64,000 bases of DNA, from IMG/VR virus record IMGVR_UViG_3300025789_000028, positions 1 through 64,000 of that record; one strand, written 5' to 3'. Source of the DNA: a virus. The notes below the pieces were generated by a model, which saw only the letters and a program-made list of their open reading frames with translations, searched no databases and was not told where the DNA came from. Made by a program: the position numbers and the translations under genes. Of the stretch, positions 14,243 to 55,409 are shown piece after piece (the stretch's first letter is position 1; each line of letters opens with the position of its first letter).

Positions 14243-14508
14243 CAGATGATGAAGAAATGAACTTACTGATCCAGCGTGACAAAGAATATGTTGCTGGTGA
14301 AAGTGCAAAGTATTTAGGTAAAAAATACACGTTTCCTGATGGGAACTATATTGAAGTAATTCAAATCAAAAGTCGTGGCCCTGGACAAAACTATATCACG
14401 TACCACATCAAGCAAGGCCCTGGCATTGATAGAAAATTGATTATACCTTTATCAGAGTTTGGTGGAACGTATGGACATTTGTTTCAGGGAAACGCGGAGA
14501 AAAAGTAA
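14239..14508 (+). CDS. hypothetical protein
   Basis: ATGA coupling. Confidence 0.75.
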   Translation: MTDDEEMNLLIQRDKEYVAGESAKYLGKKYTFPDGNYIEVIQIKSRGPGQNYITYHIKQGPGIDRKLIIPLSEFGGTYGHLFQGNAEKK

Positions 14509-14518
14509 TAAATATAAC

Positions 14519-16165
14519 ATGTCCACTCTAAAAAAGATATTCAGTTTATCAACACTTACACTAGCAGTAGCACTTACATTAAGTGTTATTGCCGCCTGGT
14601 ATAGTATCCAAGGCTTGGTAGCAATTTTCGCCGCGGCGGTTGTTCCCATTATGATCATGGGAGGCTCATTGGAGTTTGCCAAAGTTGTGACTACATTGTG
14701 GCTGCATACCTATTGGAATCGTGCATCAATATTACTACGATTATATCTAGTGCCTGCGGTCGTGTTTTTAGCACTACTAACAAGCATGGGTATCTTTGGA
14801 TTTTTAAGTAAAGCACATAGTGATCAAAGTTTAGTTAGTGGTGATGTCGCTGCCAAACTTGCAATCTACGATGAAAAGATTAAAACTGAAAAAGATAATA
14901 TTGAAACTGCACGTAAAGCCTTGCAACAAATGGATGCACAGGTTGATGCTAGATTAAGTCGTAGTGACGATGATAAGGGCGCCGAACGTGCGGTTGCCAT
15001 TCGTAAGCAACAAGCAAAAGAACGTGCAGACTTACAGAAAACTATCAGCGATTCACAAAATAAGATTTCACAAATAAATGAAGAACGTGCTCCGGTTGCG
15101 GCTGAAAATCGTAAGGTCGAGGCTGAAGTAGGTCCTATCAAATACATTGCCGCATTAATCTATGGTGATAATCCAGACAGTAGTTTACTTGAACGTGCTG
15201 TGCGTTGGGTTATTATATTGATTGTGTTTGTATTTGACCCACTAGCACTTACCCTTGTGTTGGCAAGTACATCAAGTTATGAATGGATGAATGAAGAAGA
15301 AACAAAGGTTGAAGAACCTAAAGTTGAAACTGACCCAGAACTTGAAGAGTTTGAAAAAGCATTTGATGAGGGTTTTGAGGATGAACCCACAGTAGAAGAA
15401 ATAGTGGAAGAAGTAGAAGACGAACCTATTCTTTGCTATAAGTGTAATACACCATTACTTAACGCTCCGGGTATAGGACCATTCTGTCCTAACAAGTCAT
15501 GTGACGTTATCGATGGTCCTTTTATGGAGGAAGAAAATGTTACAGATGTACAAACAACTATTGTTGAACCAAATGGAGTGGTGGGAGAAGAATTACCAGA
15601 ACAAGATACTACCCATGCAGACGAACCTAATGTGGACGATGTTCACAGAGTGGAGCCAATTGAAAACGAAATTACAGAAGTAATTACTACTGATGCAGAA
15701 ATTACAATTGATCAAGTTGAGCCAATTAAAGAATTGCCCCCACAGCCTGAAATTAGAACTGAAGGTGTTACACTAGAAGAAGTACACGAAGGTTATGTGC
15801 AGTTTGAAGGTAAGTCAATTACCAAACATGCATTACAAGAAATGCGTCCTGATTTATTCAGATTGTCATTGACTGATGGACATCCTGTAAGCACAAACTT
15901 TGGAACACAATTCCCTAAGTTTGCTGAAAAAGGAAGTATCTTTGTACGTGTAGATGTTTTACCTAATCGTGTTTACAAGTTTGATGGTAGTAGATGGATA
16001 GAGACAAATAAAGATCAAAGTGATTCATACCTATATGATGAACACTACATACAACATTTAATTCATAAAATTGACACTGGTGAATACGATATTGAATTGC
16101 TTTCTGAAAAAGAAAAAGCACAAATCGAATCATATTTGAGCGAACAAAATTCGCAAGATAAGTAA
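14519..16165 (+). CDS. multi-pass membrane protein with coiled coil, acidic region and Zn ribbon
   Basis: N-terminal TMs, coiled coil, TM (FDPLA), CYKC..CPNKSC; start MSTLKK. Confidence 0.8.
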   Translation: MSTLKKIFSLSTLTLAVALTLSVIAAWYSIQGLVAIFAAAVVPIMIMGGSLEFAKVVTTLWLHTYWNRASILLRLYLVPAVVFLALLTSMGIFGFLSKAHSDQSLVSGDVAAKLAIYDEKIKTEKDNIETARKALQQMDAQVDARLSRSDDDKGAERAVAIRKQQAKERADLQKTISDSQNKISQINEERAPVAAENRKVEAEVGPIKYIAALIYGDNPDSSLLERAVRWVIILIVFVFDPLALTLVLASTSSYEWMNEEETKVEEPKVETDPELEEFEKAFDEGFEDEPTVEEIVEEVEDEPILCYKCNTPLLNAPGIGPFCPNKSCDVIDGPFMEEENVTDVQTTIVEPNGVVGEELPEQDTTHADEPNVDDVHRVEPIENEITEVITTDAEITIDQVEPIKELPPQPEIRTEGVTLEEVHEGYVQFEGKSITKHALQEMRPDLFRLSLTDGHPVSTNFGTQFPKFAEKGSIFVRVDVLPNRVYKFDGSRWIETNKDQSDSYLYDEHYIQHLIHKIDTGEYDIELLSEKEKAQIESYLSEQNSQDK

Positions 16166-16169
16166 TAGT

Positions 16170-17369
16170 ATGGCAGAAAAGAAATTAACTCATTGCTCTT
16201 TTTGTGGCAATCATAAAGACCAGGTTTCAAAATTAATTGTCGGAGATGATGTTGCTATTTGTAGCGCATGTATCGACTTGTGCAACAATCTTATTGTTGA
16301 CGAGAAAACCGCAGATGAACCTAAAAAGATTGAATCAAATGATTTTGACGCATACACTATTAAAGATCATTTAGATAGTCTTGTTATTGGACAAGACAAT
16401 GCTAAAATGGTATTAAGCGTTGCTATTGCTAATCACTATAAGCGTATCAATTATCCTCCCAAAGATTTAGAAATTCAAAAAGGTAATGTGTTACTGGTTG
16501 GTCCTACTGGTAGTGGTAAAACATTACTTGCACGTAGCGTTGCCAAATATCTTAACGTTCCTTTTGTAGTTGCTGATGCAACCAGCTTAACAGAAGCAGG
16601 TTATGTTGGTGAAGACGTTGAAAGTATGATTAGCATGTTGCTTGCTATGGCTGACGGTGATGTTAAACTAGCAGAACGTGGCATTATCTTTATTGACGAA
16701 GTTGACAAGATCAGCCGTAAAAGCGAAAGCGCAAGTATCACACGTGACGTAAGCGGCGAAGGTGTTCAACAAGCATTGCTTAAACTAGTAGAAGGTACAA
16801 AGTGTCGTGTAACTGCTAATGGCAAACGCAAGAATCCACAAGGTGATATGATTGAAGTTGATACTAAAAACATACTATTCATTGCCGGTGGCGCATTTGT
16901 TGGATTAAATGAAATCATTAAAAATAGAGTACAAGGTAGTGGCATGGGTTTTGGTGCAACTATCAAACCTAAAGATCAAGCAGTAGATTTATCAAAATCT
17001 ACTCCTGATGACTTGGTTAAATTTGGTATGATTCCTGAATTCATTGGTCGCTTTACTACTACCATTGCACTAGAAGAATTGTCATTAGAACAATTAGTAT
17101 CTGTATTAACCAATGTTAAAAACAGTTTCATTGACCAATACAAATACTTGTTTAGTATTGATAACATTGAATTGTCATTTACTGATGATGCCATCAAACA
17201 ACTTGCTCAAAATTGTATTGATTTAAAGACAGGTGCACGTGGTCTACAAACAGAATTAGAAAAAGTATTGATGCCGCATATGTTCCATATTCACAAATAC
17301 AAGAAAAATAATATCACCGAGATAAATATTACTACAAATTTGGTAAAGGAACCCAAGGCAGGTATATGA
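16170..17369 (+). CDS. clpX: ClpX ATPase
   Basis: CSFC..C..C Zn finger, GPTGSGKT, GYVGEDVE, IDEVDK, RDVSGEGVQQALLK, GARGL. Confidence 0.97.
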   Translation: MAEKKLTHCSFCGNHKDQVSKLIVGDDVAICSACIDLCNNLIVDEKTADEPKKIESNDFDAYTIKDHLDSLVIGQDNAKMVLSVAIANHYKRINYPPKDLEIQKGNVLLVGPTGSGKTLLARSVAKYLNVPFVVADATSLTEAGYVGEDVESMISMLLAMADGDVKLAERGIIFIDEVDKISRKSESASITRDVSGEGVQQALLKLVEGTKCRVTANGKRKNPQGDMIEVDTKNILFIAGGAFVGLNEIIKNRVQGSGMGFGATIKPKDQAVDLSKSTPDDLVKFGMIPEFIGRFTTTIALEELSLEQLVSVLTNVKNSFIDQYKYLFSIDNIELSFTDDAIKQLAQNCIDLKTGARGLQTELEKVLMPHMFHIHKYKKNNITEINITTNLVKEPKAGI

Positions 17370-17587
17370 AATCATTCGGTAGAAAAGTATTAGTACAAGA
17401 CGGTAATTTTGAAAAAGCACTACGCAAACTAAAGAAAAAAGTTACAGAGTCTAATTTGCTTCAAGAAGTGCGTGACCGTGAAGCATACGTTAAACCAACC
17501 ACAAAAAGAAAAATCGCAAAGAGCCAAGCCAAGAGCCGTTGGCGCAAACATATTCGTTCACAAGAACTTCCACCCAAACTATTTTGA
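17366..17587 (+). CDS. rpsU: ribosomal protein bS21
   Basis: FEKALRKLKKKV...EVRDREAYVKPTTKRK. Confidence 0.9.
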   Translation: MKSFGRKVLVQDGNFEKALRKLKKKVTESNLLQEVRDREAYVKPTTKRKIAKSQAKSRWRKHIRSQELPPKLF

Positions 17588-17632
17588 CCAAAATAGTTTA
17601 TTTTTTTGCGTAATAGTGTATAATAAATAATG

Positions 17633-17692
17633 TTGTAGATGCCGATAGTCGGGTCTACAATAGTCATATTTGCTTATAGGAGAAATAAAATG
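17633..17692 (+). ncRNA. ROSE-like 5'UTR structure (putative RNA thermometer)
   Basis: TTGTAGA..TCTACAA hairpin, then TTGCT 3 nt before AGGAG, upstream of sHSP gene. Confidence 0.5.
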
Positions 17693-18145
17693 ACAAACAC
17701 ACTAACCCTTCGCTCCCTTGACATTCCGTCAATTCACAAATTTGCAGTTGGTTTCGACAACATGTTTGACGAAATAATGCGAACATCTCAAGCTAACACA
17801 AATTATCCCCCATACAATATCGTTAAACACGATGAAGACAACTTCAGCATTGAACTTGCTGTGGCTGGCTTTGATGAGGGTGAAATTGACGTTCAATTGA
17901 ATAACAATCAATTGGTAATTAATGGTCAAAAGGCTGTGGAATTAACAGAAGACGGTGACGTTAAATCTGTTGAATATCTACACCGCGGGATTAGTTCACG
18001 TGATTTCTCTCGCACGTTCACACTTGCGGATCATGTAGAAGTAGTAACTGCAACGGTTGCTAATGGTATCTTACGTATTGACCTTGAACGCAAAATTCCT
18101 GAGGAAAAGAAACCCAAGAAGATTGCAATCAATTACAATAAATAA
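17690..18145 (+). CDS. small heat shock protein Hsp20/IbpA-like
   Basis: NYPPYNI, ELAVAGF, YLHRGIS.R.F.R.F.L, NGIL.I.L. Confidence 0.95.
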   Translation: MTNTLTLRSLDIPSIHKFAVGFDNMFDEIMRTSQANTNYPPYNIVKHDEDNFSIELAVAGFDEGEIDVQLNNNQLVINGQKAVELTEDGDVKSVEYLHRGISSRDFSRTFTLADHVEVVTATVANGILRIDLERKIPEEKKPKKIAINYNK

Positions 18146-18160
18146 TATAATGTAAGAACA

Positions 18161-18186
18161 GTTCGCGGTGTACTACCGCGAACTTA
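18161..18186 (+). terminator. hairpin/terminator
   Basis: GTTCGCGGT-GTACT-ACCGCGAAC. Confidence 0.6.
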
Positions 18187-18207
18187 TAACTCTAGGAAAT
18201 ATTTAAC

Positions 18208-18522
18208 ATGGCAAACGCAAGCCCAGAAGTTCGTAATCTTATTAAACCTAACTTGGCTCTAAAAGAACCTCCATTGTTTAGAATCATCTACCTTAATGAT
18301 GAACATACAAGCATGGAATTTGTAATTCATACACTAGTTGAATATTTTAATTACAATTCTGATACAGCAAGTCAAATTACTGTTGATATCCATGAAAAGG
18401 GTAGTGCTATTGTTGCTGTTTTGCCCTTTGAAATTGCAGAACAAAAAGGCATCGAAGTTACATTAGATGCTAGGGCACAAGGTTATCCACTACAAGTTAA
18501 AGTGGAAGCAGAATCAAACTGA
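18208..18522 (+). CDS. clpS: ClpS adaptor
   Basis: YLNDEHTSMEFV, IHEKGSAIV, EIAEQK, GYPL. Confidence 0.92.
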   Translation: MANASPEVRNLIKPNLALKEPPLFRIIYLNDEHTSMEFVIHTLVEYFNYNSDTASQITVDIHEKGSAIVAVLPFEIAEQKGIEVTLDARAQGYPLQVKVEAESN

Positions 18523-19209
18523 TATATTGATTCGTTTAGCCCAATAGGGGCTTTTATGTAGGTAGGGATTGTTTACATACCCTACATTATTTAAAGTAGT
18601 ATCAACTGATTTTTCATAACTACCAAATACCCAATACTTAATTTTCTTTTCAGTATCATGCTTTAAAGTTTTTTGTAAGGGTATTTGGTTTTTAGTTATT
18701 TCAGGCTTTTCCCCGAAGTATAATTTTTCATCAGGGACTGCGTTAGTGACAACTATAATTTGTTTTACATCTAAATGTCGTTGTAATTTTTCAACGGATT
18801 TATTTAGATAAGTCAAGTCATCAAATCGTGCCGCAGTATAAACCATATCTTGTAATGTATTGGTATCACTATTGTTCCAACCATTGGCTCCAACAATAGC
18901 AACACCATCTACGATTACCACACTATGATGCATCATGTGAACAGTAGGCAAGTGTTTGAGTAAACTCATCAAATGTTCTGTTCTTCCTGGTAAGTCAACT
19001 GTATTAGAATATTCAGATGTTCCTGGCACATAAAAAACACCTTGATAGAATCTACCAAGGTGTGCTAATGTTTGTACTGTAGTGCGAATATCGCTACTAA
19101 CGTTACCTGCTACCAAACAGTATAAACTTGTGCTTTTGCCTTCCCAGTTAAAATTATCCTCAGGGGATAGATTTAAATCGCTGATAACATCAAAGCCAAT
19201 GTCTTGCAT
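18514..19209 (-). CDS. degenerate calcineurin-like metallophosphoesterase
   Basis: ISDLN, AGNV, PGTSE, WVFG, NNP at positions of DxH, GD, GNHE, HGH, NP. Confidence 0.65.
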   Translation of the reverse strand: MQDIGFDVISDLNLSPEDNFNWEGKSTSLYCLVAGNVSSDIRTTVQTLAHLGRFYQGVFYVPGTSEYSNTVDLPGRTEHLMSLLKHLPTVHMMHHSVVIVDGVAIVGANGWNNSDTNTLQDMVYTAARFDDLTYLNKSVEKLQRHLDVKQIIVVTNAVPDEKLYFGEKPEITKNQIPLQKTLKHDTEKKIKYWVFGSYEKSVDTTLNNVGYVNNPYLHKSPYWAKRINISV

Positions 19210-20170: not shown

Positions 20171-20188
20171 AATGCATAAATACATACT

Positions 20189-21742
20189 ATGCGAGACCTC
20201 ATTAACCAAATCAACTTCTTATTAGAAGACCGTACACTTAGCGCCGGTGTAATTAAAAAATATCCTGAACGTTTTGATAAATTTATCCAAATGATTCGTG
20301 ACGGTGTTCCTTTCTATAATACAGATCAAGAACAAGTCATTGCGGATCCAAGCGAAGCAGACAGATTCCAAGACATGTTTGACAACGATATGTTTAAAGG
20401 TTCATTGTCAATGAAATTAGATGACGGAAGCCTGATTCCATTAAGCAAGTTATTAAAGACTAGCGATTTGGGTGGCCAAGCAAGTACAGGCGAAGAAGGT
20501 GAAGAGACAGGTAAGGAAGCAGCATTATTGAAACCAAGTCAAATTGGCATCTGTGACCGTGACATTCCTGCTAGTGAATTAGGTGATGAAATTATTAACA
20601 ATCAAGTATTGCAATCAACTGATTATGGTCGTGTTGTAATCGCTATGGCTGAAGAAATTGTTGGTGGGGCAAATCCAGTTATCCCCAAAGAAGTTCCTAC
20701 AAAGATTAAAGACAGTATCATTGACTATGCCGGTGAATATTTAGGTGTATTAGCATTGGTATCAGGTACATCACGTTTCCCTAGACAGAAGGGCTTTACT
20801 GAATGGCTTGGTGCTGATGTTAGTGACTTAACATTAAACTTCCCACTAAAAGCAAATACTCCACTTGCTGATAGTTTTGCGACAATCGGTAATCAAAAAA
20901 CTCAACACAAAGTACATATCTCAAGTAAAGGTAAAGGGGGTGGTGCTCCACCTAGTATAAGTAGTTTGGTTGTTCCGCAAGAAATTCGTGACAACCCTGC
21001 ATATGAAGCTGTTGTTGCTTTTATTGATTTGTGCAATGCAGAAGGTGGGGGAAGATACAATTTACCTTCTCCCAAAACAGTATCACAGGTATTTCAAGCA
21101 ATGAACTTATTATATCAATATGCACCAGAGTCAATACCAGAAAAGTTCAATGAATTTTTACCATGGCCAAGTGATGTTGTTAACCAAGTAACAACTAGCA
21201 TGGATGCATTTAAAAAGAAAAAGAATGTTCCACTTCCAGAATATCAATCATTGTGGAGTGATATTAACTTTAAGAAACCAAGTAGCGACGGTGGCAAATT
21301 AACACATGCTGTTAAGTTAGCAGTTATGCAAGCAGTTAACGAAGGTAGTGCATTGCCTGAATTCCAAAACGTTGTTTTAGCTGTATTGGATATGAACTTT
21401 GTTCAACAATATGCTGACTTTGACCCTAAGAGTAGAGTTATGAGTTTTGCTACACAATGGCCTGCTAAACTAGACGGTAACATCACACTTGAAAGTAAGA
21501 GTGGTGCAACTGATCCTACTAAAGGTGGATTTAGTTTCAAACTAAGTCCTGTTGCACCTAAAACTGTTTTGGCTGAACCAAATGAGTTGGGTGTTCAAGA
21601 ACCAGATTCAATTAGTGTTGGCAAAAAAGACTTTGCTAAAAACGCACAAAAGATTGCAACTGGACATCGTGACACTCCAAAACACGGTCTAGGTGCTGGT
21701 TCTAAAATGGGTGATGTAGGAAGAAAATTGCGCAAAGTTTAA
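20189..21742 (+). CDS. late protein, possible PD-(D/E)xK-like domain
   Basis: CATAAATA 6 nt upstream; GEYLG..PLADSF..ISSKG; N-terminal FLLE. Confidence 0.55.
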   Translation: MRDLINQINFLLEDRTLSAGVIKKYPERFDKFIQMIRDGVPFYNTDQEQVIADPSEADRFQDMFDNDMFKGSLSMKLDDGSLIPLSKLLKTSDLGGQASTGEEGEETGKEAALLKPSQIGICDRDIPASELGDEIINNQVLQSTDYGRVVIAMAEEIVGGANPVIPKEVPTKIKDSIIDYAGEYLGVLALVSGTSRFPRQKGFTEWLGADVSDLTLNFPLKANTPLADSFATIGNQKTQHKVHISSKGKGGGAPPSISSLVVPQEIRDNPAYEAVVAFIDLCNAEGGGRYNLPSPKTVSQVFQAMNLLYQYAPESIPEKFNEFLPWPSDVVNQVTTSMDAFKKKKNVPLPEYQSLWSDINFKKPSSDGGKLTHAVKLAVMQAVNEGSALPEFQNVVLAVLDMNFVQQYADFDPKSRVMSFATQWPAKLDGNITLESKSGATDPTKGGFSFKLSPVAPKTVLAEPNELGVQEPDSISVGKKDFAKNAQKIATGHRDTPKHGLGAGSKMGDVGRKLRKV

Positions 21743-21760
21743 GCATAGATATATATTTCT

Positions 21761-22669
21761 ATGTATAGTGAACTGCACATTGAATACTCTGATCCCACAT
21801 CCCTTTTAGATCCCCTAACCGTTCGTTACAAACTATACGATTATCCCATTGTGCAGAAATGGGCCTCACGATTAGCTGAGGCATTAGCCAAACAATACAA
21901 CATTGACGACCCAAAAAGATTCGTGGGGTTTAGTGATTACACCACAGATAAAACTAATGCCGTAAATGCTATTAACAAGTGCTGTGAAATCATAGATAAG
22001 TATAGCCCTGGATTTGTTAATAGAAGAATAGATGCAAATAATATCGATCAAGATACATTAAACTATCTACACAACATCTTTGAAACATATCACGGTACAT
22101 TAAACACACCTCATCAATTTTTTACTGATGCGCCTGATGAAGTCAAATATGCATTGGCTCAACTTAACATAGAAGTACACCGTTGTGAATCATTTGTTGA
22201 AGGTAATAGAAAACCATTGCCCAGACATACTGTAACTTATTTTGCAATGGAAAAATCTCAAGAATACACTTACGCCATAGAAGACTACCAATACTTTAAT
22301 GACATGATTGAGTTTGGAACTGTGTATTTGTTGTATACTGAGATTGGGAAAACATTGCAGGATATGGCAATAGACAATGACCAACACATGCAACCAACAG
22401 CATACAAACCTTATAGACATTACAGTGCCGATTTTGTAGTTAGATTTTATAATACATCACATGAAACTTGGATTAATAATCGTAAAAAATATAAAAAGTA
22501 TTATGATACTAACTCTATTTACTTTTTGAATCACGGGTATGATTACAGTCATCCATACAATCGTCCCGGTGATATCCCATTAGCAAAAATTATTCCAAAC
22601 CCACAAATACCAAACATAGTTGATATGATTGCCAAACGACAACATGTAAGTTCGGTGAAATTAGTTTAA
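21761..22669 (+). CDS. hypothetical protein
   Basis: Long ORF; LNYLH..FE, LN..VH.CE. Confidence 0.8.
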   Translation: MYSELHIEYSDPTSLLDPLTVRYKLYDYPIVQKWASRLAEALAKQYNIDDPKRFVGFSDYTTDKTNAVNAINKCCEIIDKYSPGFVNRRIDANNIDQDTLNYLHNIFETYHGTLNTPHQFFTDAPDEVKYALAQLNIEVHRCESFVEGNRKPLPRHTVTYFAMEKSQEYTYAIEDYQYFNDMIEFGTVYLLYTEIGKTLQDMAIDNDQHMQPTAYKPYRHYSADFVVRFYNTSHETWINNRKKYKKYYDTNSIYFLNHGYDYSHPYNRPGDIPLAKIIPNPQIPNIVDMIAKRQHVSSVKLV

Positions 22670-27656: not shown

Positions 27657-27959
27657 ATGGTACATCAGATAGTCAATAATATTAGTCCTGAAACTATTGA
27701 AACACTAGTCATTCTACAAGAAGAATGTGCTGAGGTTATCGTAGAAATCAGTAAAGTCTTTAGATTTGGTCCTGACCAAATGATGGAAGGCAGTAATGAA
27801 ACTAATATGCAACGTTTAGAAAAAGAACTTGGTGATGTGTTAGCAATGTTAAAGTTGTTAACCGAACAAGAAGTCGGAGTAACTATGGAAGGCATGCAAA
27901 CAGGTGCTGAAAATAAGTTAGAAAAGTTGAAACGTTTTAGCAATATCAGGGTTAAATAA
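27657..27959 (+). CDS. MazG-like nucleotide pyrophosphohydrolase
   Basis: EECAEV...EKELGDV. Confidence 0.8.
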   Translation: MVHQIVNNISPETIETLVILQEECAEVIVEISKVFRFGPDQMMEGSNETNMQRLEKELGDVLAMLKLLTEQEVGVTMEGMQTGAENKLEKLKRFSNIRVK

Positions 27960-27963
27960 TTAT

Positions 27964-28338
27964 ATGGAATTGTATCTAGATTTATTCATTATGTTTTGTT
28001 TTGGCTTTTATATAGGTCAAAAAGTCTTTATCTACCAATTGCGTAACACTCTTAAACAAGAGGCTGCTAAATTGGGCATCGATTTAGAACAAGAAACCAC
28101 TGAAGAAGAATTAGAATCGTTGCCTCCCCGTTGCGTAATTGAAAAGCACGGTGATCAACTATATCTATACGACAAAGACACAAACGATTTTTATTGCCAA
28201 GCACGTAATCTAGAATCATTAGCAGAAGCATTATATAACAACCGCAAGATCGACCTTGCTCATGTGGTTAACAATAACGATAAGATGTGGTTTGTTAAAG
28301 GTAAGATTAGTCAATCGGTAGTAATCAATGAAGGTTAA
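27964..28338 (+). CDS. membrane-anchored hypothetical protein
   Basis: N-terminal TM. Confidence 0.75.
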   Translation: MELYLDLFIMFCFGFYIGQKVFIYQLRNTLKQEAAKLGIDLEQETTEEELESLPPRCVIEKHGDQLYLYDKDTNDFYCQARNLESLAEALYNNRKIDLAHVVNNNDKMWFVKGKISQSVVINEG

Positions 28339-30950: not shown

Positions 30951-31031
30951 GATGTTCTCCTAATATTGTTGTTATTTTGTATTTATGCTTGACACCGTCA
31001 TTAACATCTGCTATAATGATAAATATAAACT

Positions 31032-31586
31032 ATGAAGATAACTGAAGTATTAATGGAAGAAACTACCAACAAAAAGCCACACTTGTACCTAGACATGGAT
31101 GGTGTGCAAGCCGATTTTTTTGGGCGTTGGGCTGAGATTGAGGGTGTGCCTCATTACTCACATATCAATGACCACGAAGCAGCCATTGGTAGACTTGCCA
31201 AAGCAGGGCCCGAAAAAGTATATGACTTCTTTAAAAACTTAGAACCACTACAAGGTGGACTAAAAATCATTAGCTGGTTGCATCAACATCATATTCCTTT
31301 TACTGTGTTAAGCGCACCATTAAGAATGGAAGGTGCAGCAAGCATCAAGGGCAAACGTGAATGGTTGGACAAATACAATCCGGGCACTAGTGGAAATGCA
31401 ATTTTTACATCAGCCAAATACAAATATGCTACTGACAAAGACGGAAACCCCAATGTGTTAGTAGACGATTACGGCAAATATCTTAATGCCTGGCGTGATC
31501 ATGGTGGTATTGCTATCAAGCATGAAGATGGTAATACCGAACATACTATCCGTGAATTAGAAAAGATTTACCTAAAAGATAAATAA
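31032..31586 (+). CDS. HAD 5'(3')-deoxyribonucleotidase-like
   Basis: DMDGV, LSAP, K..W, LVDD. Confidence 0.85.
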   Translation: MKITEVLMEETTNKKPHLYLDMDGVQADFFGRWAEIEGVPHYSHINDHEAAIGRLAKAGPEKVYDFFKNLEPLQGGLKIISWLHQHHIPFTVLSAPLRMEGAASIKGKREWLDKYNPGTSGNAIFTSAKYKYATDKDGNPNVLVDDYGKYLNAWRDHGGIAIKHEDGNTEHTIRELEKIYLKDK

Positions 31587-31590
31587 TAGT

Positions 31591-32037
31591 ATGAGTAATA
31601 TACAACAATTAATGGAAAGTTTGGATCGTCTTAGTGACGAAGCCACATTGGCTATTCAACTACACGACAGTTTTGATATTGAACTGGGCGAACATTTTGT
31701 TATTGAAACAGGTGTTGTAGGATTTACTGATGACGGTATCATCTTAGAATCTGACGATGATATGCTAGAATACTTGTCATTGCATGACATGCTCACAGAA
31801 GCAGAATATCAGGGACGCAAAGTTCCATTAGGCAAGCCTATGCAAGGCGATGTCAAAAAGAGCAAAGTATATGTGCGCAAGCCAAATGGCAAAGTAGTCA
31901 AAGTTAACTTTGGCGACAAGAACATGCGTATCAAAAAGAACAGTCCGGGCCATCGTAAATCATTTCGTGCCCGTCATCACTGTGAAAATCCCGGGCCACG
32001 TTGGAAGGCACGTTATTGGTCATGCCGCGCTTGGTGA
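31591..32037 (+). CDS. conserved T4-like late protein, probable head component
   Basis: Acidic N-half, LTE|AEY, basic VNFG..RKSFRARH.C..YWSC..W. Confidence 0.7.
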   Translation: MSNIQQLMESLDRLSDEATLAIQLHDSFDIELGEHFVIETGVVGFTDDGIILESDDDMLEYLSLHDMLTEAEYQGRKVPLGKPMQGDVKKSKVYVRKPNGKVVKVNFGDKNMRIKKNSPGHRKSFRARHHCENPGPRWKARYWSCRAW

Positions 32038-32090
32038 TCAGTTTACCCGTTATCATTGACCTTAGTCACCACACTCTATAAAATATAAGC

Positions 32091-32273
32091 ATGGCAACTA
32101 AACCAGGTCAAGATCAAACACGCTACGAAGTTATTACCCAAGAAGATAATGAATCGGGGGATATGATTATCCCTCTTCCCATGGTCCTATTAGAACAATT
32201 AGGCTGGAAAGAAGGCGATAACTTAGAGATCGGTTTTGACAAAGACGGCCAAATTTTCTTAAAAAAGGGATAA
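32091..32273 (+). CDS. AbrB/MazE-like protein
   Basis: IPLP..LL..LGWKEGD.L. Confidence 0.75.
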   Translation: MATKPGQDQTRYEVITQEDNESGDMIIPLPMVLLEQLGWKEGDNLEIGFDKDGQIFLKKG

Positions 32274-32896: not shown

Positions 32897-33112
32897 ATGG
32901 CTAAAGAAACAGGTATTAAAATAGAAGGGCAGGTAGTTGACGTTCAAAGGAACGCCGTCTTTACTGTGAAACTAGATACAGGGCATACTGTGATAGGACA
33001 TGTTTCTGGCAAAATGCGTCAGCACGAAATTCGCATATTGTTAGGCGACAAAGTAGAAATGGAAATGAGTCCTTACGACATGAGTAAGGGCAGAATCGTA
33101 AGAAGAAAATAA
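32897..33112 (+). CDS. infA: translation initiation factor IF-1
   Basis: MAKE..I.IEG.V..N..F.V.L..GH...HVSGKMR...IRIL.GD.V..EMSPYD..KGRI. Confidence 0.95.
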
Positions 33113-34388: not shown

Positions 34389-35131
34389 TGCAATTTAATA
34401 AAAATTTTATAGGTAATCCTTGGCCCAATAAAATTATGAATTTTTTGTGGGGTACTGATAGTCAAGAACTGTATTTAAAAAATGCAGAGACTCAACCAAC
34501 CGACTGGTATTACAGGGATCGTGAACTTATATATTCTTATAATGAATATGGACATCGAAGTAAAAACATAAGTGATATAGATTTAGACAATTACATATTA
34601 TTTACCGGATGTAGTCATACCGAAGGTGTAGGTTTAGAATTAGAAAAAACTTACCCCTATCAAGTGGCACAAAAGTTAGGGTGCGATTATTATAATCTTG
34701 GATTAGGTGGCACTGGCATAGATGTAGTTGAGCATAATTTAATACAATGGTTTTTAACTGTGCAAAAGAAACCTAAACACTTGTTTATTCAATGGCCTGA
34801 TCATAGTAGATTTATATCTCAAAATAACAATCCTAGATATACCAATCTAGTAGAAGAAGGAACTTGGGCCAAACCTAATAGTGAAACTTTTAGATTTATC
34901 GTCGGTGCTGAGGAATCTGGATTTAATTTTGCTAGAAAAGAATTATACAAACGTCTTATATTAGAAATAGCTAACTGCCCTGTAACAACAGTGGGGGCAT
35001 CATCCAACATGCCATATGATTCGTCTAGTATCTACTTATTTCAAAAAGATTTAGCCAGAGACTTATCACATTTTGGTAATATATCTCATCGTGCATTAGC
35101 AGATGATATTTTGAGTTCTATTATTGTATAA
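34388..35131 (+). CDS. SGNH/GDSL hydrolase-like
   Basis: GCSHTEG, NLGLGG, D..HFG. Confidence 0.65.
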   Translation: MQFNKNFIGNPWPNKIMNFLWGTDSQELYLKNAETQPTDWYYRDRELIYSYNEYGHRSKNISDIDLDNYILFTGCSHTEGVGLELEKTYPYQVAQKLGCDYYNLGLGGTGIDVVEHNLIQWFLTVQKKPKHLFIQWPDHSRFISQNNNPRYTNLVEEGTWAKPNSETFRFIVGAEESGFNFARKELYKRLILEIANCPVTTVGASSNMPYDSSSIYLFQKDLARDLSHFGNISHRALADDILSSIIV

Positions 35132-35138
35132 ATACAAT

Positions 35139-35693
35139 ATGCGTGATATTATTACATTACTTGAGGAAAAAGCTAAGCCTCAAGACATAGAAATCATCCC
35201 ACTCAATTTCACACCCAATGAAGTTGAACCCATAATGGGCAAGGATACCCTTGAATTGCACTATGACAAACTTGCTAAGGGCTACGCAAAACGATTTAAC
35301 GACAAAGAGGGTGATCCTACATTCAACTATGCAGGAGCATTTTTACATAACATGTGGTTCCCACAGTTCCGTGAAGTTCGTACTAATAATAAACCAAACG
35401 GCCCTATGTTAGGTTTTATCAACAAACATTTCAAGAGTTACGACCAATTCAAAAATGAGTTTGAAACTCTAGCAATGACAATTCAAGGCTCAGGTTGGGT
35501 CTATCTAGCATATGATGGTAAACTAAAAACTATCAAAAACCATGAAGTACGTGATGACATACTATTGCTTGTAGACTGGTGGGAACATGCCTGGATATTA
35601 GACTACGGCAGTGATAAGAAAAAGTATCTAAAAGAACTTTGGAAGATTATTAATTGGAACGTTATTAACACACGATGGGGTAAAAGTTTATGA
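35139..35693 (+). CDS. sod: Fe/Mn superoxide dismutase
   Basis: LHY, LHNMW, GSGW, DWWEHAW: metal ligands retained. Confidence 0.9.
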   Translation: MRDIITLLEEKAKPQDIEIIPLNFTPNEVEPIMGKDTLELHYDKLAKGYAKRFNDKEGDPTFNYAGAFLHNMWFPQFREVRTNNKPNGPMLGFINKHFKSYDQFKNEFETLAMTIQGSGWVYLAYDGKLKTIKNHEVRDDILLLVDWWEHAWILDYGSDKKKYLKELWKIINWNVINTRWGKSL

Positions 35694-36381: not shown

Positions 36382-36408
36382 CTGATAAATACAGTATAAG
36401 GGCTAAAA

Positions 36409-37515
36409 ATGAGCATACCAAATCAACAGAACATTAATATTGGGCTTCCAAACGAATCTATCGGAAGCGATTCATTATTCACGGCATTTACAAAAACACA
36501 AGACAACTTCAGTCAGTTATTTTCTTGTGCTAGTCCATACGTATCATTCATAGGTAACACCGGCATCAATACCAGTGCTAATGTTAGCAACGGATCAATT
36601 ACTATTACTAACACCGGTGTCACAGAATTAGTTGCTGGTACAGGGGTTACATTGTCAGGAAACACCGGGGTCGTTACTATTTCTAGTAGCGGTGGTGGTA
36701 ATGGCGGCGGCGGAACCGTAACAAGCATAGCTGTAATTCCAGTGTCAAACACACGACTAACTGTGTCAGGAAGTCCTATCGTATCAGAAGGCAATATATA
36801 TGTAGATTTAGCGACAAGCAATGTTAGTGCTGGTACATATACAAATCCAACAGTTACAGTAGATGCATATGGAAGAATCACTAGTGCTTCAAACAACACA
36901 GTATCAGGTACTGTTACGAGCATTGGATTGACTCCTGGACCGGGCATACAAATCAACGGTGGACCAATCACAAGCAATGGTAACATTACTGTTACTAACA
37001 CAGGTGTTACAAGATTAAATCAAGGTCCTGGTATTGCATTGTCAGGTGGCAACGGTAACGTTACTATTAGTGCAACTACATTAGGTGGAACAGTAACAGG
37101 TGTAAGCGTAGCAAGTAACGCATTAGTGGTTACAGGAAGTCCAGTAACTACATCAGGTACTATCACAGTTGATTTGCCAGCAAATGTTCCTGTGACAGGA
37201 CAACTATTACTAAGTGGTAGTGATAATTTAGGTAACGGTGCTGCCGCAAACTTAAATGTAACAGCAAGTTATTTCTCAACATCAGGTGGTCCTTATACAG
37301 CAACATTAGCCGCAGGTACAACAGGACAAATCAAAACATTTATGTGTGCAAGTCATGCGTTGGGATATGACATGGTAATCACAGTTACTAACGCAGGATG
37401 GAAATCAAGCGGTACCGGAACAATCACATTTACTGCTACAGGACAAGGATGCACTCTTCAATATATTAATAGTAAGTGGTTCTGTATTGGCAACAACGGC
37501 ACAACATTCGCATAA
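36409..37515 (+). CDS. fibre-like structural protein with gp9/gp10-like N-terminus
   Basis: INIG..N..G.DSL..AF.K..NF..L; GTVTS repeats; TVDAYGRIT. Confidence 0.75.
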   Translation: MSIPNQQNINIGLPNESIGSDSLFTAFTKTQDNFSQLFSCASPYVSFIGNTGINTSANVSNGSITITNTGVTELVAGTGVTLSGNTGVVTISSSGGGNGGGGTVTSIAVIPVSNTRLTVSGSPIVSEGNIYVDLATSNVSAGTYTNPTVTVDAYGRITSASNNTVSGTVTSIGLTPGPGIQINGGPITSNGNITVTNTGVTRLNQGPGIALSGGNGNVTISATTLGGTVTGVSVASNALVVTGSPVTTSGTITVDLPANVPVTGQLLLSGSDNLGNGAAANLNVTASYFSTSGGPYTATLAAGTTGQIKTFMCASHALGYDMVITVTNAGWKSSGTGTITFTATGQGCTLQYINSKWFCIGNNGTTFA

Positions 37516-42677: not shown

Positions 42678-42720
42678 TAGTGGTGGGTAAGCATAAATAC
42701 TATATAAAAGGATATTAATC

Positions 42721-45700
42721 ATGATTATAGGACCAGGTGTAGTAATTGGCTCAGGAGCAACAATGGGTGCAGGTAATGCAGGCCCAACCGGAAACATTAT
42801 TTTTGAGTATGCAATGGGCAATAGCGCAAGTTATAACGGCCAAGGACTTGATTTAAGTCGTAATGGATTTCTTGGTCCAGTTGGCAGTACAGTAGGCACT
42901 AATTTTATGTTCGATATTTCAGCAGATTATGCAAATGGCGCTGTTGGTAATATTGGACAATATTTTAACGGTTACGGTGGCAATAGTGGCAGCGGTAATG
43001 CTTTTATTACTCACGGCCCAATGAGTTATCTAAGTTTTGATGGCAATGCCGCTGATCAATATGTTGATAGCAACTATGTCAATGGTTATAACATTCCATC
43101 AGGTAGCAGTTACTCAATTTTTGCTGTTGTAAGATTGAAGGGTTTTACTGGTTCCGGTGGTACATTTAACGGTGGCGGTATAGTAGGTGGAGATAATATG
43201 TATTTTCAATTTGTTCCACCGGGACTCCTTGGAAATCCTTATCCAGTGTTATGTGCAAACAATACCAACACCTATCCAGCAGTTGCTGATTTTGACACAC
43301 AATATCAACTCAATACATGGTATGCTGTAGCACTTACATATGATTCTGTATCTCAAACAATGAGACTGTATGTTAACGGACAAGCAATCGGTGGTAGTGG
43401 TGTTTCAACAAGTGTTATGCCTATCAGTGGCAATGAACCATTATATTGGGGTACACTAGAAGGTCAAAATTATTTGAACGGTGACCTTGGTGTTATGACA
43501 GCATGGAACTATGCATTAAGTCCTAGCGAGATTGCTAGTTATACTACTGATTATGGATATCAATATGGTATTCAAATAGCTAAACAAGACAACGATATGC
43601 CTGCACAATCATATAGTCAATTGTTCTCAGTACCAGGTCAATATACATTCCAAGTGCCACAAGGTGTAAGTAATGTTAGTATGGTGGCAGTTGGTGCAGG
43701 TGGCGGTGGTACTTATGCTGGTTACAGCCCTCCAGGTGGTGACAGTTATGTTTATTCTCAGTGGTCTCATTTCAATGTAAACATGAACACAAATGCTGGC
43801 TATAGTGGCGCGCCATTCATTACATTTGATTGTACTACTGGTAATAATAATGCGTTATTGGGTAATGTTGCCCCAGGTTGGTTGTTTACTAGTATTGACT
43901 TAAACAATTATTATCCCAACAGAGCATTAATTGAAGGCAATGTATACGGTATTGTCTTAGCAGTAGATAGTACTGATACAGCAAACGTTGTATTGACTAT
44001 TTCTCCTAGTGTAGATTCGGTCAGTGGTAACGTTTATAATTTCTTGGGTCAAACTATTGTTGGTGCACAAGGTGCACTTGAAATAAATAATAGCCAATAT
44101 TATACTAACAACAATGGTACTCCTGGACCACGTGCTAAACCATTATGGGGTGACAGCGGAGGTAAGGGTGGTGTAGTTGATTCACTAGGTTCTTGGCCAA
44201 TCGGTGGCGCTGGGGCTGGTGGTTATGGTACGAATGATGCTGTTGTAGCATTCGATCCTACACAAACTTATGTATATGATGGCGGTGGTAACTATGGTAC
44301 TGGTGAACCAAATATTATATTAGGTCTATCTAACTATAACTTGTCAGTTGAAGCAACAGCAAACAACAGTAGTTATCCTGGTATCGCTACTGGTACATAC
44401 GATATTACATTTGGTCAAAAAGTAATGTTCAGTTTAACTGTAGATACATCTGCTAGTTCAGGCAGTCAATGCATTGGATTTGGTGGTAGTGGTGCTGAAT
44501 TACAAAGTTATGTGGGCGGTACTACAGATAGTGGTGGATTCTATAATGATGGTGGTTTTTATTCAAACGGCGCGCCAGCTTATTCAGGTTATCCAACATT
44601 TACTACAGGTGATGTAGTTGATATTGCTATTGATAACTCCAATGCATTAGGTCAATTAACATGGGTTAGAGTTAACGGCGGTGATTGGATGGGAGATCCA
44701 GTGGCTAATCCAGCAACAGGTACTAATGGTATAACAATTTCTGTGAACACAGAAGATGGATCAATTTACTTGATGACTACACAAGGAGATGCCGGTGATA
44801 TCGGTAAGTGGAGTATCAATACAAGCAATACATATTCAACTCCAAGCGGATATACATTTGTTGCTGGACTAGCTAATGCAGGATCAAATGGTGGCGGTGG
44901 TTCTAATCAAGAATTACCAACTTATACAGATGGTCAAGGTACCGGTAGTATCGGTGGTTCAGGTGGCGGAGGCGGCGGACTATATAGTGACATAGGCTCC
45001 GGTGGTGGTGGAGTAGGTGTTTATGGTGTAGGTAATCCAGGCACTCATGGTGGCTGGGTAGACAGCGACACATATGGTGGCAATAATCCTTATTCAGAGT
45101 GGCAAGCTCAAGCGGTTGGCGGTCGCGGCGGTAGTCGAATAGGCAGCTCAGGTACACAAGGCGGCATGGCAAGTGCATGGGCAGGTGGTGCAGGTGGTTG
45201 GCCAGGTGGTGGTGGCGGTAGCGCACCAAGTCTATGGGACGGTGGTAACGGTGGTGCATTAGCATACAAGAATAACGTAACTACTGATCCAGGTACACCG
45301 GGCAATGCAGGTACTGTACTACAAGTTATTGTAGGTCAAGGTGGCTGGGGCGGTGGATTTACTGGTGAAAATTATTATGGTGGTGGTAAGGGCGGTGACG
45401 GTGCAGTACGTATTGTTTGGCCCGGTGATACTAGACAATTCCCTGACACAAGCGTAGGAATAGATGCACTAGTAACTTCACTTACTATTAATCCGGGTGA
45501 TTTTGTATTTGGCGGTGGCTCACCTGCTAACTCAATCACAGTAGGTTCAGGATCGATAGGAAATAATTATGTAACTATATATTCAGCAAATGATGTTGTA
45601 GCACAAAATATTTTTGCTTTCTTTAGATCAGTTGGTGTTTATACTCAGAATTCACTGAACAGCAATAATTCATATGATCCAAATAATTTCAATGCATACA

Positions 45701-45965: not shown

Positions 45966-46832
45966 ATGGCAAAGCAACCTAGCATTAACGAAACAAACGA
46001 TCCAGGAGTATCACGTATTCCTGTACAACAAAAAATTGTTAAGTCTGTTAGTAACTCATTACCTAAATATCATTGGGTAAGAGACCCTTCATATGCTCTT
46101 GCTGAACAATTTGTTCCACAATTGTCAGAAAGCAGTATTGCCGCAACTGTTGATTTACGTCAATATTGCAGTCCAATCGATGATCAAGGAAACTTAGGTA
46201 GTTGTACTGGTAATGCTATTGCAGGTGCAATTGATTTGTTAGATAGAAAAACACATAACTTGCAAACACGTGTTAGCAGATTATTCATTTACTACTATGA
46301 ACGTGTTCTTGAGAATGATGTAAATTATGATAACGGTGCATATATTAGTGACGGTATCAGAGCAACATCTACATACGGTGCACCGCAAGAAACATTATGG
46401 CCATACAACATTAATATGTTTAGAACCAGACCTAGTTCTGCCGCAATCGCTGATGCAGTAAAACGCAAAGTTACATCAAGCCAAGCGGCAGCAAATTTCA
46501 CAGCAGTACAAAGTGCATTAGCAAGTGGTTATCCTGTTATTGTAGGCTTTGATGTATATTCAAGTTTCGAAGGTGCATGGGGTAATATACCTCATGGTCA
46601 AACAGGATCAGGTATGATGCCTTATCCTAACACAAGAACAGAATCATTGTTGGGCGGACATGCTGTTTGTCTAGTGGGATATAACAACAATACAAATCGT
46701 TTTATTGCAAGAAATAGTTGGGGGACAAGTTGGGGTGACAATGGTTACTTCTATATGCCATATCAAGTGATTCAGAATTCTAGCATGAGCAGTGACTTTT
46801 GGGTTATTAAAACAGTAAATGACCCCGCATAA
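45966..46832 (+). CDS. papain-like C1A cysteine peptidase
   Basis: DQG.LGSC, GGHAV, RNSWG..WG..GY. Confidence 0.93.
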   Translation: MAKQPSINETNDPGVSRIPVQQKIVKSVSNSLPKYHWVRDPSYALAEQFVPQLSESSIAATVDLRQYCSPIDDQGNLGSCTGNAIAGAIDLLDRKTHNLQTRVSRLFIYYYERVLENDVNYDNGAYISDGIRATSTYGAPQETLWPYNINMFRTRPSSAAIADAVKRKVTSSQAAANFTAVQSALASGYPVIVGFDVYSSFEGAWGNIPHGQTGSGMMPYPNTRTESLLGGHAVCLVGYNNNTNRFIARNSWGTSWGDNGYFYMPYQVIQNSSMSSDFWVIKTVNDPA

Positions 46833-46851
46833 ATAAATCAAAGGAAATACA

Positions 46852-47394
46852 ATGTCATTATCAGGAATACAAATTACAGGCGGTTCAGGTGGAATAACAA
46901 TTTCAGGTGGTGGAGTTGTTTTTGGTGACGGTGGTTCTCCTCCCCCTCCACCTCCCCCAGGAACATTAACATTTACATATGGTCAAATCATTGCAAGTCA
47001 AGACCAATCACCTGGAGCAGGTGGTAATGGTACAGGGGTTGTAATTATTAATCCGGTACCGGGGGGAAGTCCTACTCCTGGTGGTCCAGGTATTGCACTT
47101 TCAACTACGTCAAGTCAAGAAACTTATATAGCAGGATTAACCCCTGTTCCAGGATATAGCACTGGTTTTGGCACTTATAATGGTACTCCATTACAATATA
47201 CCGCAACATGGAGTGCAGGTAGTACGTACACAACAACGCCGGTAGAAGTACAATACTATCCAACTTTTGCAGGTACACCTGATGCTTGGGTAATTTATGT
47301 TTTAAATCCTAGTGCTACTGCAGGACAAGCAGGAACATTTAACTTCCCGGTTACTTTTACAGCAACACCTAATACACCAATTACATTATTCTAA
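46852..47394 (+). CDS. Gly/Pro-rich virion appendage protein
   Basis: GIQITGG N-terminus, poly-Pro linker, TW.AGST..GTFNFP.TF. Confidence 0.7.
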   Translation: MSLSGIQITGGSGGITISGGGVVFGDGGSPPPPPPPGTLTFTYGQIIASQDQSPGAGGNGTGVVIINPVPGGSPTPGGPGIALSTTSSQETYIAGLTPVPGYSTGFGTYNGTPLQYTATWSAGSTYTTTPVEVQYYPTFAGTPDAWVIYVLNPSATAGQAGTFNFPVTFTATPNTPITLF

Positions 47395-54344: not shown

Positions 54345-54347
54345 ATT

Positions 54348-54689
54348 TTATCCTTTCTTGCAAAATGTGTTAAGTGCAGGCTTCAATGTGTTGATTAAAT
54401 ACGTTTCACGCTGATGAGCCTCAGCCTTACCACGTACAACTTCAACGATACTATAGGTAAACGATTCAACGCCATGCTCTCTAATAGAACGGCTCAAGCC
54501 CCAATCCTTATCCTCAGCATACGCACGTTGAATGTGCTTTTGAACTCTACGGTGTGCTGTACGACGGGCATTACCTCCGTAACTCAATACAGTTAATCCA
54601 ATGTACTCTTGACCGGTCACGATATTACGCAACAAGTAAATTACTTGATTACGATCTGACCTACGTTTACGTGTACTTTTCGAATTCAT
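54348..54689 (-). CDS. GIY-YIG-like nuclease
   Basis: VIY..N..TG..YIG.T; R..H; E..LI..P.LN; promoter TTGACT-17-TATAAT at 54724. Confidence 0.75.
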   Translation of the reverse strand: MNSKSTRKRRSDRNQVIYLLRNIVTGQEYIGLTVLSYGGNARRTAHRRVQKHIQRAYAEDKDWGLSRSIREHGVESFTYSIVEVVRGKAEAHQRETYLINTLKPALNTFCKKG

Positions 54690-54773
54690 ACATGTATTAT
54701 ATGCCCAAAACCATTTAAAGTCAACCTACTTTTGTTGTTTTTTTGCAACAATTTTCTCGCTATAAATATCAGT

Positions 54774-55409
54774 ATGGCATCATTAACCGATTTTATCACG
54801 CATTGGGGAGAAATAGTTGAACTAGATTTTCCTAAAATGGATTTGAATAAAGTAAAAGACATACTAGACAAGCATCCAGGTTGGAAATATTATCAGCCAC
54901 ATAAACCGGGATATAATCGTTATGGATTAAGTGTTACCAGTTTAGATGGCAATTTCTCAGGGGAACCTGATTTATTTAGTTTACGTGAATATCAAAAGAT
55001 GACAGGTAAATCATATAATGAAATTGATTTTAAAAACAGAACTAACTTAGTACAGTTTATTCCTGAATTAAATGATTTTCTAGATTTTTGGGAACCCAAT
55101 TTAGGTCGTACACATTTCTTAAGATTAGATAAAGGTGGATTCTTTCCACCGCATCGTGATAATGGTGCAATAGTTAATGTACCTACATTTAGAATATTAG
55201 TACCTATATATAATTTTGGTATTAATGATATGAAATGGATTCAGGAAGAGAAAGTAATTCGGTTTGATTTAGGTGCTACTTACTTTGTTAATACTAGTAG
55301 ACTACATAGTCTATTCAGTTTTGTTGACAATTGTTTAATGCTCGTATTAAATGTAAATGTCAATGATTATATTTTAGATAAAATGGTTAAGAAAATTGTC
55401 GCACTTTAA
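54774..55409 (+). CDS. Asp/Asn beta-hydroxylase-like 2OG-Fe(II) oxygenase
   Basis: PPHRD..NT...HS; TATAAATA 5 nt upstream. Confidence 0.75.
   Translation: MASLTDFITHWGEIVELDFPKMDLNKVKDILDKHPGWKYYQPHKPGYNRYGLSVTSLDGNFSGEPDLFSLREYQKMTGKSYNEIDFKNRTNLVQFIPELNDFLDFWEPNLGRTHFLRLDKGGFFPPHRDNGAIVNVPTFRILVPIYNFGINDMKWIQEEKVIRFDLGATYFVNTSRLHSLFSFVDNCLMLVLNVNVNDYILDKMVKKIVAL

Follow-up and report, generated by a model that had tools for sequence, protein, structure and literature searches.

Late genes of bacteriophage T4 are read from promoters whose core, TATAAATA, lies at about −13 to −6 and is recognized by gp55 together with gp33 and the gp45 clamp; transcripts start approximately 5–6 nt after this box, its sixth following nucleotide being +1. 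In the Thermus phage phiYS40, middle and late promoters reportedly consist of a −10 element only, most of the corresponding transcripts are said to be leaderless, and translation was reportedly proposed to contribute to the temporal switch in work attributed to Sevostyanova and co-workers. ATAAATA late motifs related to those of T4 were described in cyanomyophages and in Rak2/CBB-type jumbo phages (PMC5259590), leaderless expression is the norm in Deinococcus–Thermus hosts (PMC12340547), and the lambda cI mRNA made from PRM has its +1 on the A of the AUG and is translated from this 5'-terminal AUG (PMC10491246, PMC4611024). Such translation needs AUG (GUG and UUG fail at the 5' terminus), depends on IF2, is antagonized by IF3 and is possible on 70S ribosomes (PMC4611024). 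The idea that a phage-encoded ribosomal protein bS21 biases initiation towards phage mRNAs has also been published already (Mizuno et al. 2019, PMC6375957; Chen et al. 2022, PMC9723584). Here, we analyse bases 1–64000 (hereafter the window) of the 92,059-bp IMG/VR record IMGVR_UViG_3300025789_000028, in which a T4-late-like ATAAATA box stands a few nucleotides before start codons devoid of any Shine–Dalgarno (SD) sequence. It seems fairly probable that these sites are promoters fused to start codons, giving leaderless mRNAs.

The record was estimated by CheckV to be 26% complete, pointing to an uncultured phage of approximately 350 kb, and its G+C content is approximately 37% (A+T 62%). A first-pass annotation had singled out nine ATGs of the window as lying 4–6 nt after such a box without SD, and direct reading of the sequence confirmed the reported box, this spacing and the lack of SD at all nine, the gap leaving no room for an SD. 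Sites in which the box directly precedes the ATG are hereafter called flush, and those in which it precedes an SD-bearing leader are called leadered; the same script was applied to all the genomes compared, with windows of 4–7 nt and 12–40 nt, respectively. To the nine sites, we add 57168(−) and the variants at 21761 (TATATAT) and 32091 (TATAAAATA) within the window (table 1), as well as 68225(−), 70572, 75177(−) and 88680(−) beyond it. An SD-like motif, often AAGGAG, was detected in 96 of the 139 genes of a crude gene call, alongside approximately 14–16 flush genes, so that the contrast between the two kinds of genes is real. The strong SDs also ascribed to early-type cassettes were indeed retrieved, as AAGGAG-type SDs are found in many other genes, these cassettes included.

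Could this layout be owing to chance, or to miscalled start codons? ATAAATA-like strings are common in a genome with 62% A+T, yet the tests reject this explanation, which we regard as practically negligible. Indeed, ATAAATA occurs 36 times on both strands of the 92-kb record, and an ATG lies at +4 to +6 in 13 cases versus 2.2 expected (binomial P=1.2e-7); 11 of these 13 ATGs open an open reading frame (ORF) of at least 50 aa. For ORFs of this size, box-to-ATG distances in the record are 4 nt (five cases), 5 nt (four) and 6 nt (two), then spread over 16–29 nt. The histogram of these distances over the record, which had been proposed as a check, is bimodal, with a sharp peak at 4–6 nt and a broad group at 16–37 nt with an SD in between. 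Furthermore, AT-rich T4-like phages with 38–66 boxes show no flush peak, and the box is conserved in orthologues (see below). As for the starts themselves, 10 of 16 are forced by an in-frame stop 6–36 nt upstream that leaves no alternative start codon, the next ATG in these ten genes being 7–162 codons downstream; for clpX, the flush ATG is the only possible start, the ClpX zinc finger beginning at residue 8. The spacing thus differs from an AT-rich background by the binomial test, by cross-genome controls and by orthologue conservation, and the observation is real and far above chance.

Table 1. Box-associated sites and initiation-related genes of the window (gap: nucleotides between box and ATG or tRNA gene).
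Layout	Signal	Gap	ATG	Span	Strand	Product and context
Flush	ATAAATA	4 nt	10917	10915..10928	-	DUF6492, 293 aa; divergent from ligase gene
Flush	ATAAATA (14508-14514)	4 nt	14519	14508..14521	+	membrane-like protein, 548 aa
Flush	ATAAGTA variant	5 nt	16170	16158..16172	+	clpX, 399 aa
Flush	ATAAATA	6 nt	20189	20176..20191	+	517 aa, without known family
Flush	TATATAT variant	4 nt	21761	21750..21763	+	302 aa
Flush	TTAAATA variant	5 nt	27964	27952..27966	+	124 aa
Flush	TTGACA-N17-TATAAT in tandem with ATAAATA (31019-31025)	6 nt	31032	30989..31034	+	5'-nucleotidase NT5C
Flush	ATAAATA	5 nt	31591	31579..31593	+	148 aa
Flush	variant ATAAAATA	5 nt	32091	32078..32093	+	60 aa
Flush	ATAAATA	4 nt	35139	35128..35141	+	Fe/Mn superoxide dismutase
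Flush	ATAAATA	5 nt	54774	54762..54776	+	211 aa
Flush	ATAAATA	4 nt	57168	57166..57179	-	274 aa; divergent from 57251
Flush, early-type	TATAAT (-10) within TTGACT-N17-TATAAT	6 nt	54689	54687..54701	-	113 aa; candidate leaderless gene
Leadered	ATAAATA, leader with AAGG	17 nt	36409	36385..36411	+	368 aa, strong codon bias; fibre-like
Leadered	ATAAATA, leader with AAGGA	21 nt	42721	42693..42723	+	1073 aa, Laminin_G_3, fibre-like
Leadered	box, SD AAGGA		46852	46829..46854	+	180 aa; fibre-like
Leadered	box before leader		57251	57219..57253	+	S8-type protease, 587 aa
Leadered or coupled	ATAAATA (17322-17328) inside clpX 3' end	37 nt	17366	17322..17587	+	bS21 (17366-17587)
tRNA	TTAAATA, spacer aatta	5 nt		13323..13410	+	tRNA-Phe (13335-13410)
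tRNA	ATAAATA (61053-61047), spacer aatta	5 nt		60968..61053	-	initiator-like tRNA(CAT) (60968-61041)
No flush box				32897..33112	+	IF-1, 71 aa
				51737..51889	-	50-aa ORF, proposed as ArfA-like

Orthologues were then compared in whole related contigs (G001–G005) and in related IMG/VR loci (numbered L). For 20189, 14519, 27964, sod and nt5c, orthologues with 45–75% protein identity still have the box, whereas the spacer and the context further upstream vary. For the 517-aa protein (20189), found in ten related IMG/VR loci with 45–72% identity, it is retained 5–7 nt before the ATG in seven of the nine loci with a readable start region (two of these seven sharing identical upstream sequence), with variable spacers and sometimes a different upstream neighbour. 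Orthologues of 14519 in L009–L013 and L018 keep (A/C)TAAATA 4–7 nt before the ATG, those of clpX display ATAAGTA or TATATAA at 3–6 nt, those of 21761 in L013 and L014 keep a TATATA element, the 27964 orthologue in L013 has ATAAATA followed by 5 nt, and the sod orthologues have ATAAATA 5 nt (G003) and 4 nt (G005) before the ATG. The SD-led genes clpP, ligase, hsp20, clpS and 13565 have orthologues that keep their SDs and upstream TATAAT boxes. The layout of a given gene can nevertheless change, as 31591 is flush in the record and SD-led in G003. We also noticed an N-terminal peptide, MRD(L/I)I..(L/I).E(D/E), common to the 517-aa protein and the superoxide dismutase (SOD), and present in 31032 and 31591 as well; it may be a 5' coding feature that flush genes have in common.

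The box behaves as a promoter rather than as a ribosome-binding element, as four observations indicate. First, box-to-ATG distances are bimodal, the same heptamer being also used upstream of SD-led genes with a leader in between. It lies 15–37 nt before genes coding for fibre-like proteins, the protease and bS21, and further leadered pairs with an SD in between are 60738(−)>60711 and 19609(−)>19583 (box>ATG); at 36409, box, leader and SD are all conserved in the G003 and G005 orthologues. Second, two tRNA genes are preceded by a box at 5 nt, with an identical spacer (aatta), other tRNA genes having a box 7–13 nt upstream. Third, 54774, 10917(−), 57168(−) and 31032 each come first after a short divergent intergenic region. 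Fourth, some orthologues swap the box for TTGACA/G-N17-TAnnnT at constant geometry: nt5c has ATAAATA and 5–6 nt in the record and in G003 (5 nt there) versus TTGACA-N17-TAAAAT, 6 nt and ATG in G005, and 32091 has the box variant in the record and GTAAATA with 4 nt in G005 versus TTGACG-N17-TATACT, 5 nt and ATG in G003. Promoters of the sigma70 type abutting ATGs, with a gap of 5–7 nt after the −10, were detected at 54689(−) in the window and in G003–G005, including four in G004.

At both tRNA sites, transcription may start on the first nucleotide of the tRNA, which would leave no 5' leader for RNase P. Comparable leaderless tRNAs are found in Nanoarchaeum.

These observations bear on the possibility that the heptamer acts at the RNA level, as an A/U-rich stretch at −5 to −11 that would recruit ribosomes without an SD (for instance through bS1) within polycistronic mRNAs. 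A/U-rich translation enhancers do exist, the box sits where an SD would be, and it often occurs within operon-like gene runs (14519, 16170, 27964, 31591 and 35139). However, the identical heptamer is found 15–37 nt upstream of genes with an SD of their own and beside tRNA genes, the exact 7-mer is conserved rather than a general A/U richness, a full −35/−10 promoter substitutes for it at the same distance in orthologues, and no other obvious promoter is present in the short divergent intergenic regions where several flush genes open transcription units. We thus consider an RNA-level signal unlikely.

A termination–reinitiation process, in which the TAA in or near ATAAATA would be the stop codon of the upstream gene and the ribosome would restart at the nearby ATG, is very unlikely. 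The upstream stop does lie within the box or touches it at 14519, 16170, 27964, 31591 and 35139. Yet 54774, 10917(−), 57168(−) and 31032 are the first genes after short divergent intergenic regions and have no upstream gene on the same strand, so that translational coupling cannot explain these four sites; the upstream stop is 18 nt away at 20189; and a stop codon accounts neither for the conservation of the whole heptamer nor for its use before tRNAs and SD-led genes.

Under the favoured reading, i.e. promoters fused to start codons, ATAAATA would be the core (−10-like) element of a class of phage promoters resembling the T4-type late promoters, used by this clade of large uncultured phages in two geometries: 15–37 nt upstream of the ATG with an SD leader, or 4–6 (rarely 7) nt before an SD-less ATG. 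Two features of the sites agree with known signals, namely a −10-type element approximately 5–8 nt upstream of a start codon lacking SD, as in leaderless genes, and a TATAAATA-like core without −35, as in T4-type late promoters, the 5' T being not conserved. The gap of 4–6 nt would place +1 on the A of the AUG or next to it, the resulting mRNA would be leaderless, and its translation would follow the 5'-terminal-AUG pathway, which is AUG-specific, IF2-dependent, IF3-antagonized and 70S-compatible. The start codon is ATG at all 31 flush sites of the clade and at all nine in phages Mosig and Melnitz, never GTG or TTG (the crude gene caller gives approximately 12% non-ATG starts genome-wide), which is consistent with the AUG requirement of leaderless translation. 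A preference for A at +4, reported for lambda cI, is not seen in the flush genes.

Since flush ORFs have no SD, their translation may be tied to their own promoter: inside a read-through transcript, an SD-less ORF would be poorly translated, and expression would occur only when its own promoter fires. Such insulation would make the flush layout the most compact expression signal for a gene cassette. The flush genes would be expressed late, judging from the resemblance of the box to late promoters. Their products are mostly auxiliary enzymes (ClpX, 5'-nucleotidase, SOD, phosphoesterases) and not those of classical late genes, many of them having no family in PHROG or Pfam; the box precedes fibre-like genes (Laminin_G_3, C1q), yet also those of ClpX, SOD and the nucleotidase.

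Several points weigh against promoters fused to start codons. Folding of positions +1 to +45 indicated that flush genes are not less structured than SD-led genes (Mann–Whitney P=0.24), and approximately half of the flush sites have a box that runs into, or touches, the stop codon of the preceding gene, which would also fit coupling or reinitiation. No match to a gp55-type sigma factor (phrog_234, i.e. T4 gp55, or phrog_12791) was detected in the record and ten related contigs, all of which are fragments (2–26% complete). The distance from box to transcription start is presumed by analogy with T4. Lastly, counts across the contigs are not independent, given the kinship of the contigs compared. 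Regarding the host, the best cellular matches of ClpX are 48–55% identical and spread over many phyla, and are therefore uninformative; searches of the phage collection with 22 kb (megablast) and with two proteins (tblastn) retrieved no close cultured relative.

The comparison across phages revealed a marked difference in the use of the box. Flush and leadered boxes number, respectively, 11 and 14 in the whole record (labelled G000), 3 and 5 in G001, 6 and 9 in G002, 6 and 6 in G003, 5 and 2 in G004, and 4 and 4 in G005, with a peak at 4–7 nt in all five related contigs. In T4, none of the 65 boxes is closer than 12 nt and the corresponding values are 0 and 34; those of three cyanophages are 0 and 20 (Syn9), 1 and 25 (S-PM2), and 1 and 36 (P-SSM2). 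In CBB, for which an ATAAATA late motif and a gp55-like sigma have been published (PMC5259590), no enrichment was detected (3 pattern matches versus 5 in the reversed control). The bS21-encoding phages Mosig (6 flush, all at exactly 5 nt, and 23 leadered) and Melnitz (3 and 18) exhibit a weaker form of the layout, flush boxes being enriched in these two relative to T4, Syn9, S-PM2 and P-SSM2, which were fetched whole (Fisher P=8e-4). In Mosig, the flush ATGs are the annotated starts of six coding sequences, each exactly 5 nt past its box, with products annotated as a fatty-acid desaturase domain protein, a nitroreductase, an Asp/Arg hydroxylase, a UDP-diacylglucosamine hydrolase, a DNA end protector protein and a tail tube protein.

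Mosig (60328–60990 and 92996–94129) and the window (54774–57168) both have, among their flush genes, Asp/Arg-hydroxylase-like and metallophosphoesterase-like enzymes arranged in divergent pairs. Auxiliary cassettes of this kind may travel together with a minimal fused promoter.

The first-pass annotation went further, proposing that translation passes from an SD-led early phase to a leaderless late one and that the phage supplies bS21, IF-1 and an atypical initiator tRNA, together with an ArfA-like peptide, that would retune host ribosomes towards 5'-terminal AUGs. The first part of this proposal stands in that a promoter-like box puts the predicted start on the AUG, with a spacing that is non-random and conserved. 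A clean switch is contradicted by the late box lying also before SD-led genes (36409, 42721, 46852, 57251 and bS21), and by sigma70-type early promoters abutting ATGs at 54689(−) and in G003–G005.

Among the proposed components, the bS21 gene is genuine (PF01165, E=1.8e-16, 56.8 bits versus a cut-off of 27) and full-length, residues 12–66 aligning with E. coli-type bS21. So is that of IF-1 (PF01176, E=2.8e-23, 78.4 bits versus a cut-off of 30.2), whose residues 1–70 align with solved IF-1 structures (E=1.6e-22); judging from these alignments, both are ordinary proteins. The tRNA is likewise real and atypical: it keeps the C1xA72 mismatch, the CAU anticodon and the CUCAUAA loop, and has two of the three anticodon-stem G:C pairs (G29:C41 and G30:C40, 31:39 being U.G), a 3-bp D stem, an atypical T loop and a discriminator U. 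The ArfA-like peptide did not hold, as a six-frame search of the whole record gave no PF03889 match, and a direct Pfam scan of the 50-aa ORF returned only a sub-threshold DUF7230.

The expression signals of these genes are of several kinds. The stop codon of clpX and the ATG of bS21 overlap (ATGA), bS21 being leadered or coupled to clpX and not flush. The box embedded in the last clpX codons (Ile-Asn-Ile) relies on ATA, a rare codon making up 20% of those for Ile, which stands at this place in the window as well as in each of the five related loci with a readable site; this conservation of a rare codon suggests selection on the DNA sequence and an internal promoter. Hence, bS21, although not leaderless, is probably expressed from a late-type promoter, as described for other phages encoding it (PMC9723584). 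No flush box precedes the IF-1 gene, whose orthologues are SD-led. In G003 and G005, these orthologues have GGAG-type SDs unusually far from the ATG (14–16 nt), and the copy of the window has no clear SD.

Overall, a retuning of host ribosomes by bS21, IF-1 and the tRNA in the course of a switch from SD-led to leaderless translation appears quite unlikely. The three genes lie next to flush genes, bS21 and the initiator-like tRNA have boxes of their own, and flush boxes are enriched in two bS21 lineages and not in T4, Syn9, S-PM2, P-SSM2 and CBB, in which tblastn gave no bS21 match; this co-occurrence is suggestive. However, it is the only tie between these genes and the layout, it concerns approximately two independent lineages, and it is confounded by host type, as Mosig and Melnitz infect SAR11 and OM43. 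The expected pairing of flush spacing with bS21 holds in this clade and in Mosig and Melnitz; it fails for exact ATAAATA in Vibrio phage 2.275.O, where IF-3, bS21 and a ClpS-like gene stand side by side and the spacing is not enriched (2 versus 2), although ATAAATA may not be the late-promoter motif of this phage. Moreover, the alignments of bS21 and IF-1 with ordinary bacterial proteins run from end to end, bS21 belongs to a ClpX–Hsp20–ClpS proteostasis module and is leadered or clpX-coupled, late boxes drive SD-led genes, early promoters abut ATGs, one of the three G:C pairs that mark initiators is missing from the tRNA, and ArfA has no match. Previous work also points elsewhere: E. coli ribosomes lacking bS21 and uS2 were linked by cryo-EM to better leaderless translation of lambda cI (PMC10491246), which runs against the simplest version of the proposal, and the factors known to matter for leaderless translation are IF2 and IF3, not IF-1 (PMC4611024). 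We would likewise hold it improbable that bS21, possibly with IF-1 and the tRNA, remodels ribosomes late in infection so that AUG-first messages are preferred; if it did, the recurrent pairing of flush late promoters with bS21 in at least two lineages would work as one functional unit instead of reflecting the type of host.

Beyond these signals, the record encodes 33 tRNA genes, a ClpX–bS21–Hsp20–ClpS module, ClpP, DNA ligase, the large subunit of ribonucleotide reductase, an Fe/Mn SOD, a 5'-nucleotidase and long fibre-like proteins with Laminin_G_3 and C1q domains. The proteostasis module (16170–23329) includes ClpP, located 3 kb past its other genes, and the same region of the related locus L015 also contains DnaK. 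Early-type cassettes (at 7600–8600 and 24300–24660) contain repeated, near-identical promoter–leader units, tttgggcaTATAATac(t/a)tgtattgattgattAAAGGAg, which resemble the promoter–stem-loop shuffling modules of T4-like phages. Beyond the window, a RimK-like homologue annotated as ‘ribosomal protein S6 glutaminyl transferase’ (73539–74426(−) in the record, L184:9539–10426; phrog_2599, E=1.6e-32) immediately follows 75177(−), the flush gene of a metallophosphoesterase, and could represent another ribosome-modifying function.

If transcript starts confirm the predicted positions, these phages would possess a class of genes without ribosome-binding site, each driven by a 7–8 bp promoter fused to its start codon. 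This class would be shared by uncultured giant phages that are widespread in aquatic settings and by cultured myophages of SAR11 and OM43, and it would add a translational layer to T4-type temporal control, SD-less ORFs being silent on read-through transcripts and active from their own promoter. The annotation of starts and promoters in such phages would change accordingly, and a testable class of substrates would become available for the long-standing question of the function of phage bS21.

How does this layout compare with known systems? It shares with the T4 late promoters the A/T heptamer core, the lack of a −35 and, before structural-type genes, SD leaders of 15–37 nt, but the 5' T of TATAAATA is not conserved here and no gp55 homologue was found in the fragments. 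Most strikingly, the box essentially never abuts an ATG in T4, Syn9, S-PM2, P-SSM2 and CBB, whereas approximately 40% of the gene-proximal boxes do so here; the searchable full-text literature yielded no account of start codons to which a T4-type late promoter is fused. With the bS21-encoding phages (PMC6375957; PMC9723584), the likeness is a bS21 probably expressed from a late-type promoter. Those of Chen et al. infect Bacteroidetes, which ignore the SD (PMC9723584), whereas the early promoters here are of the TTGACA/TATAAT type and the SDs are strong. Leaderless mRNAs are mentioned neither in the Melnitz paper nor in the two bS21 papers (PMC6375957, PMC9723584), and promoters or sequence motifs are not mentioned in Chen et al. 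2022 (PMC9723584). As in lambda cI, the classic leaderless phage mRNA, the promoter is predicted to set +1 at the AUG; cI is, however, a single regulatory gene of a temperate phage, whereas a conserved class of at least a dozen genes per 92 kb is concerned here. The nearest precedent is the Thermus phage phiYS40, from which this phage differs by the strong AAGGAG SDs of the surrounding genes, by the T4-late-like nature of the box, by the restriction of the flush geometry to a subset of box-driven genes, and by the bS21 and IF-1 genes that it carries.

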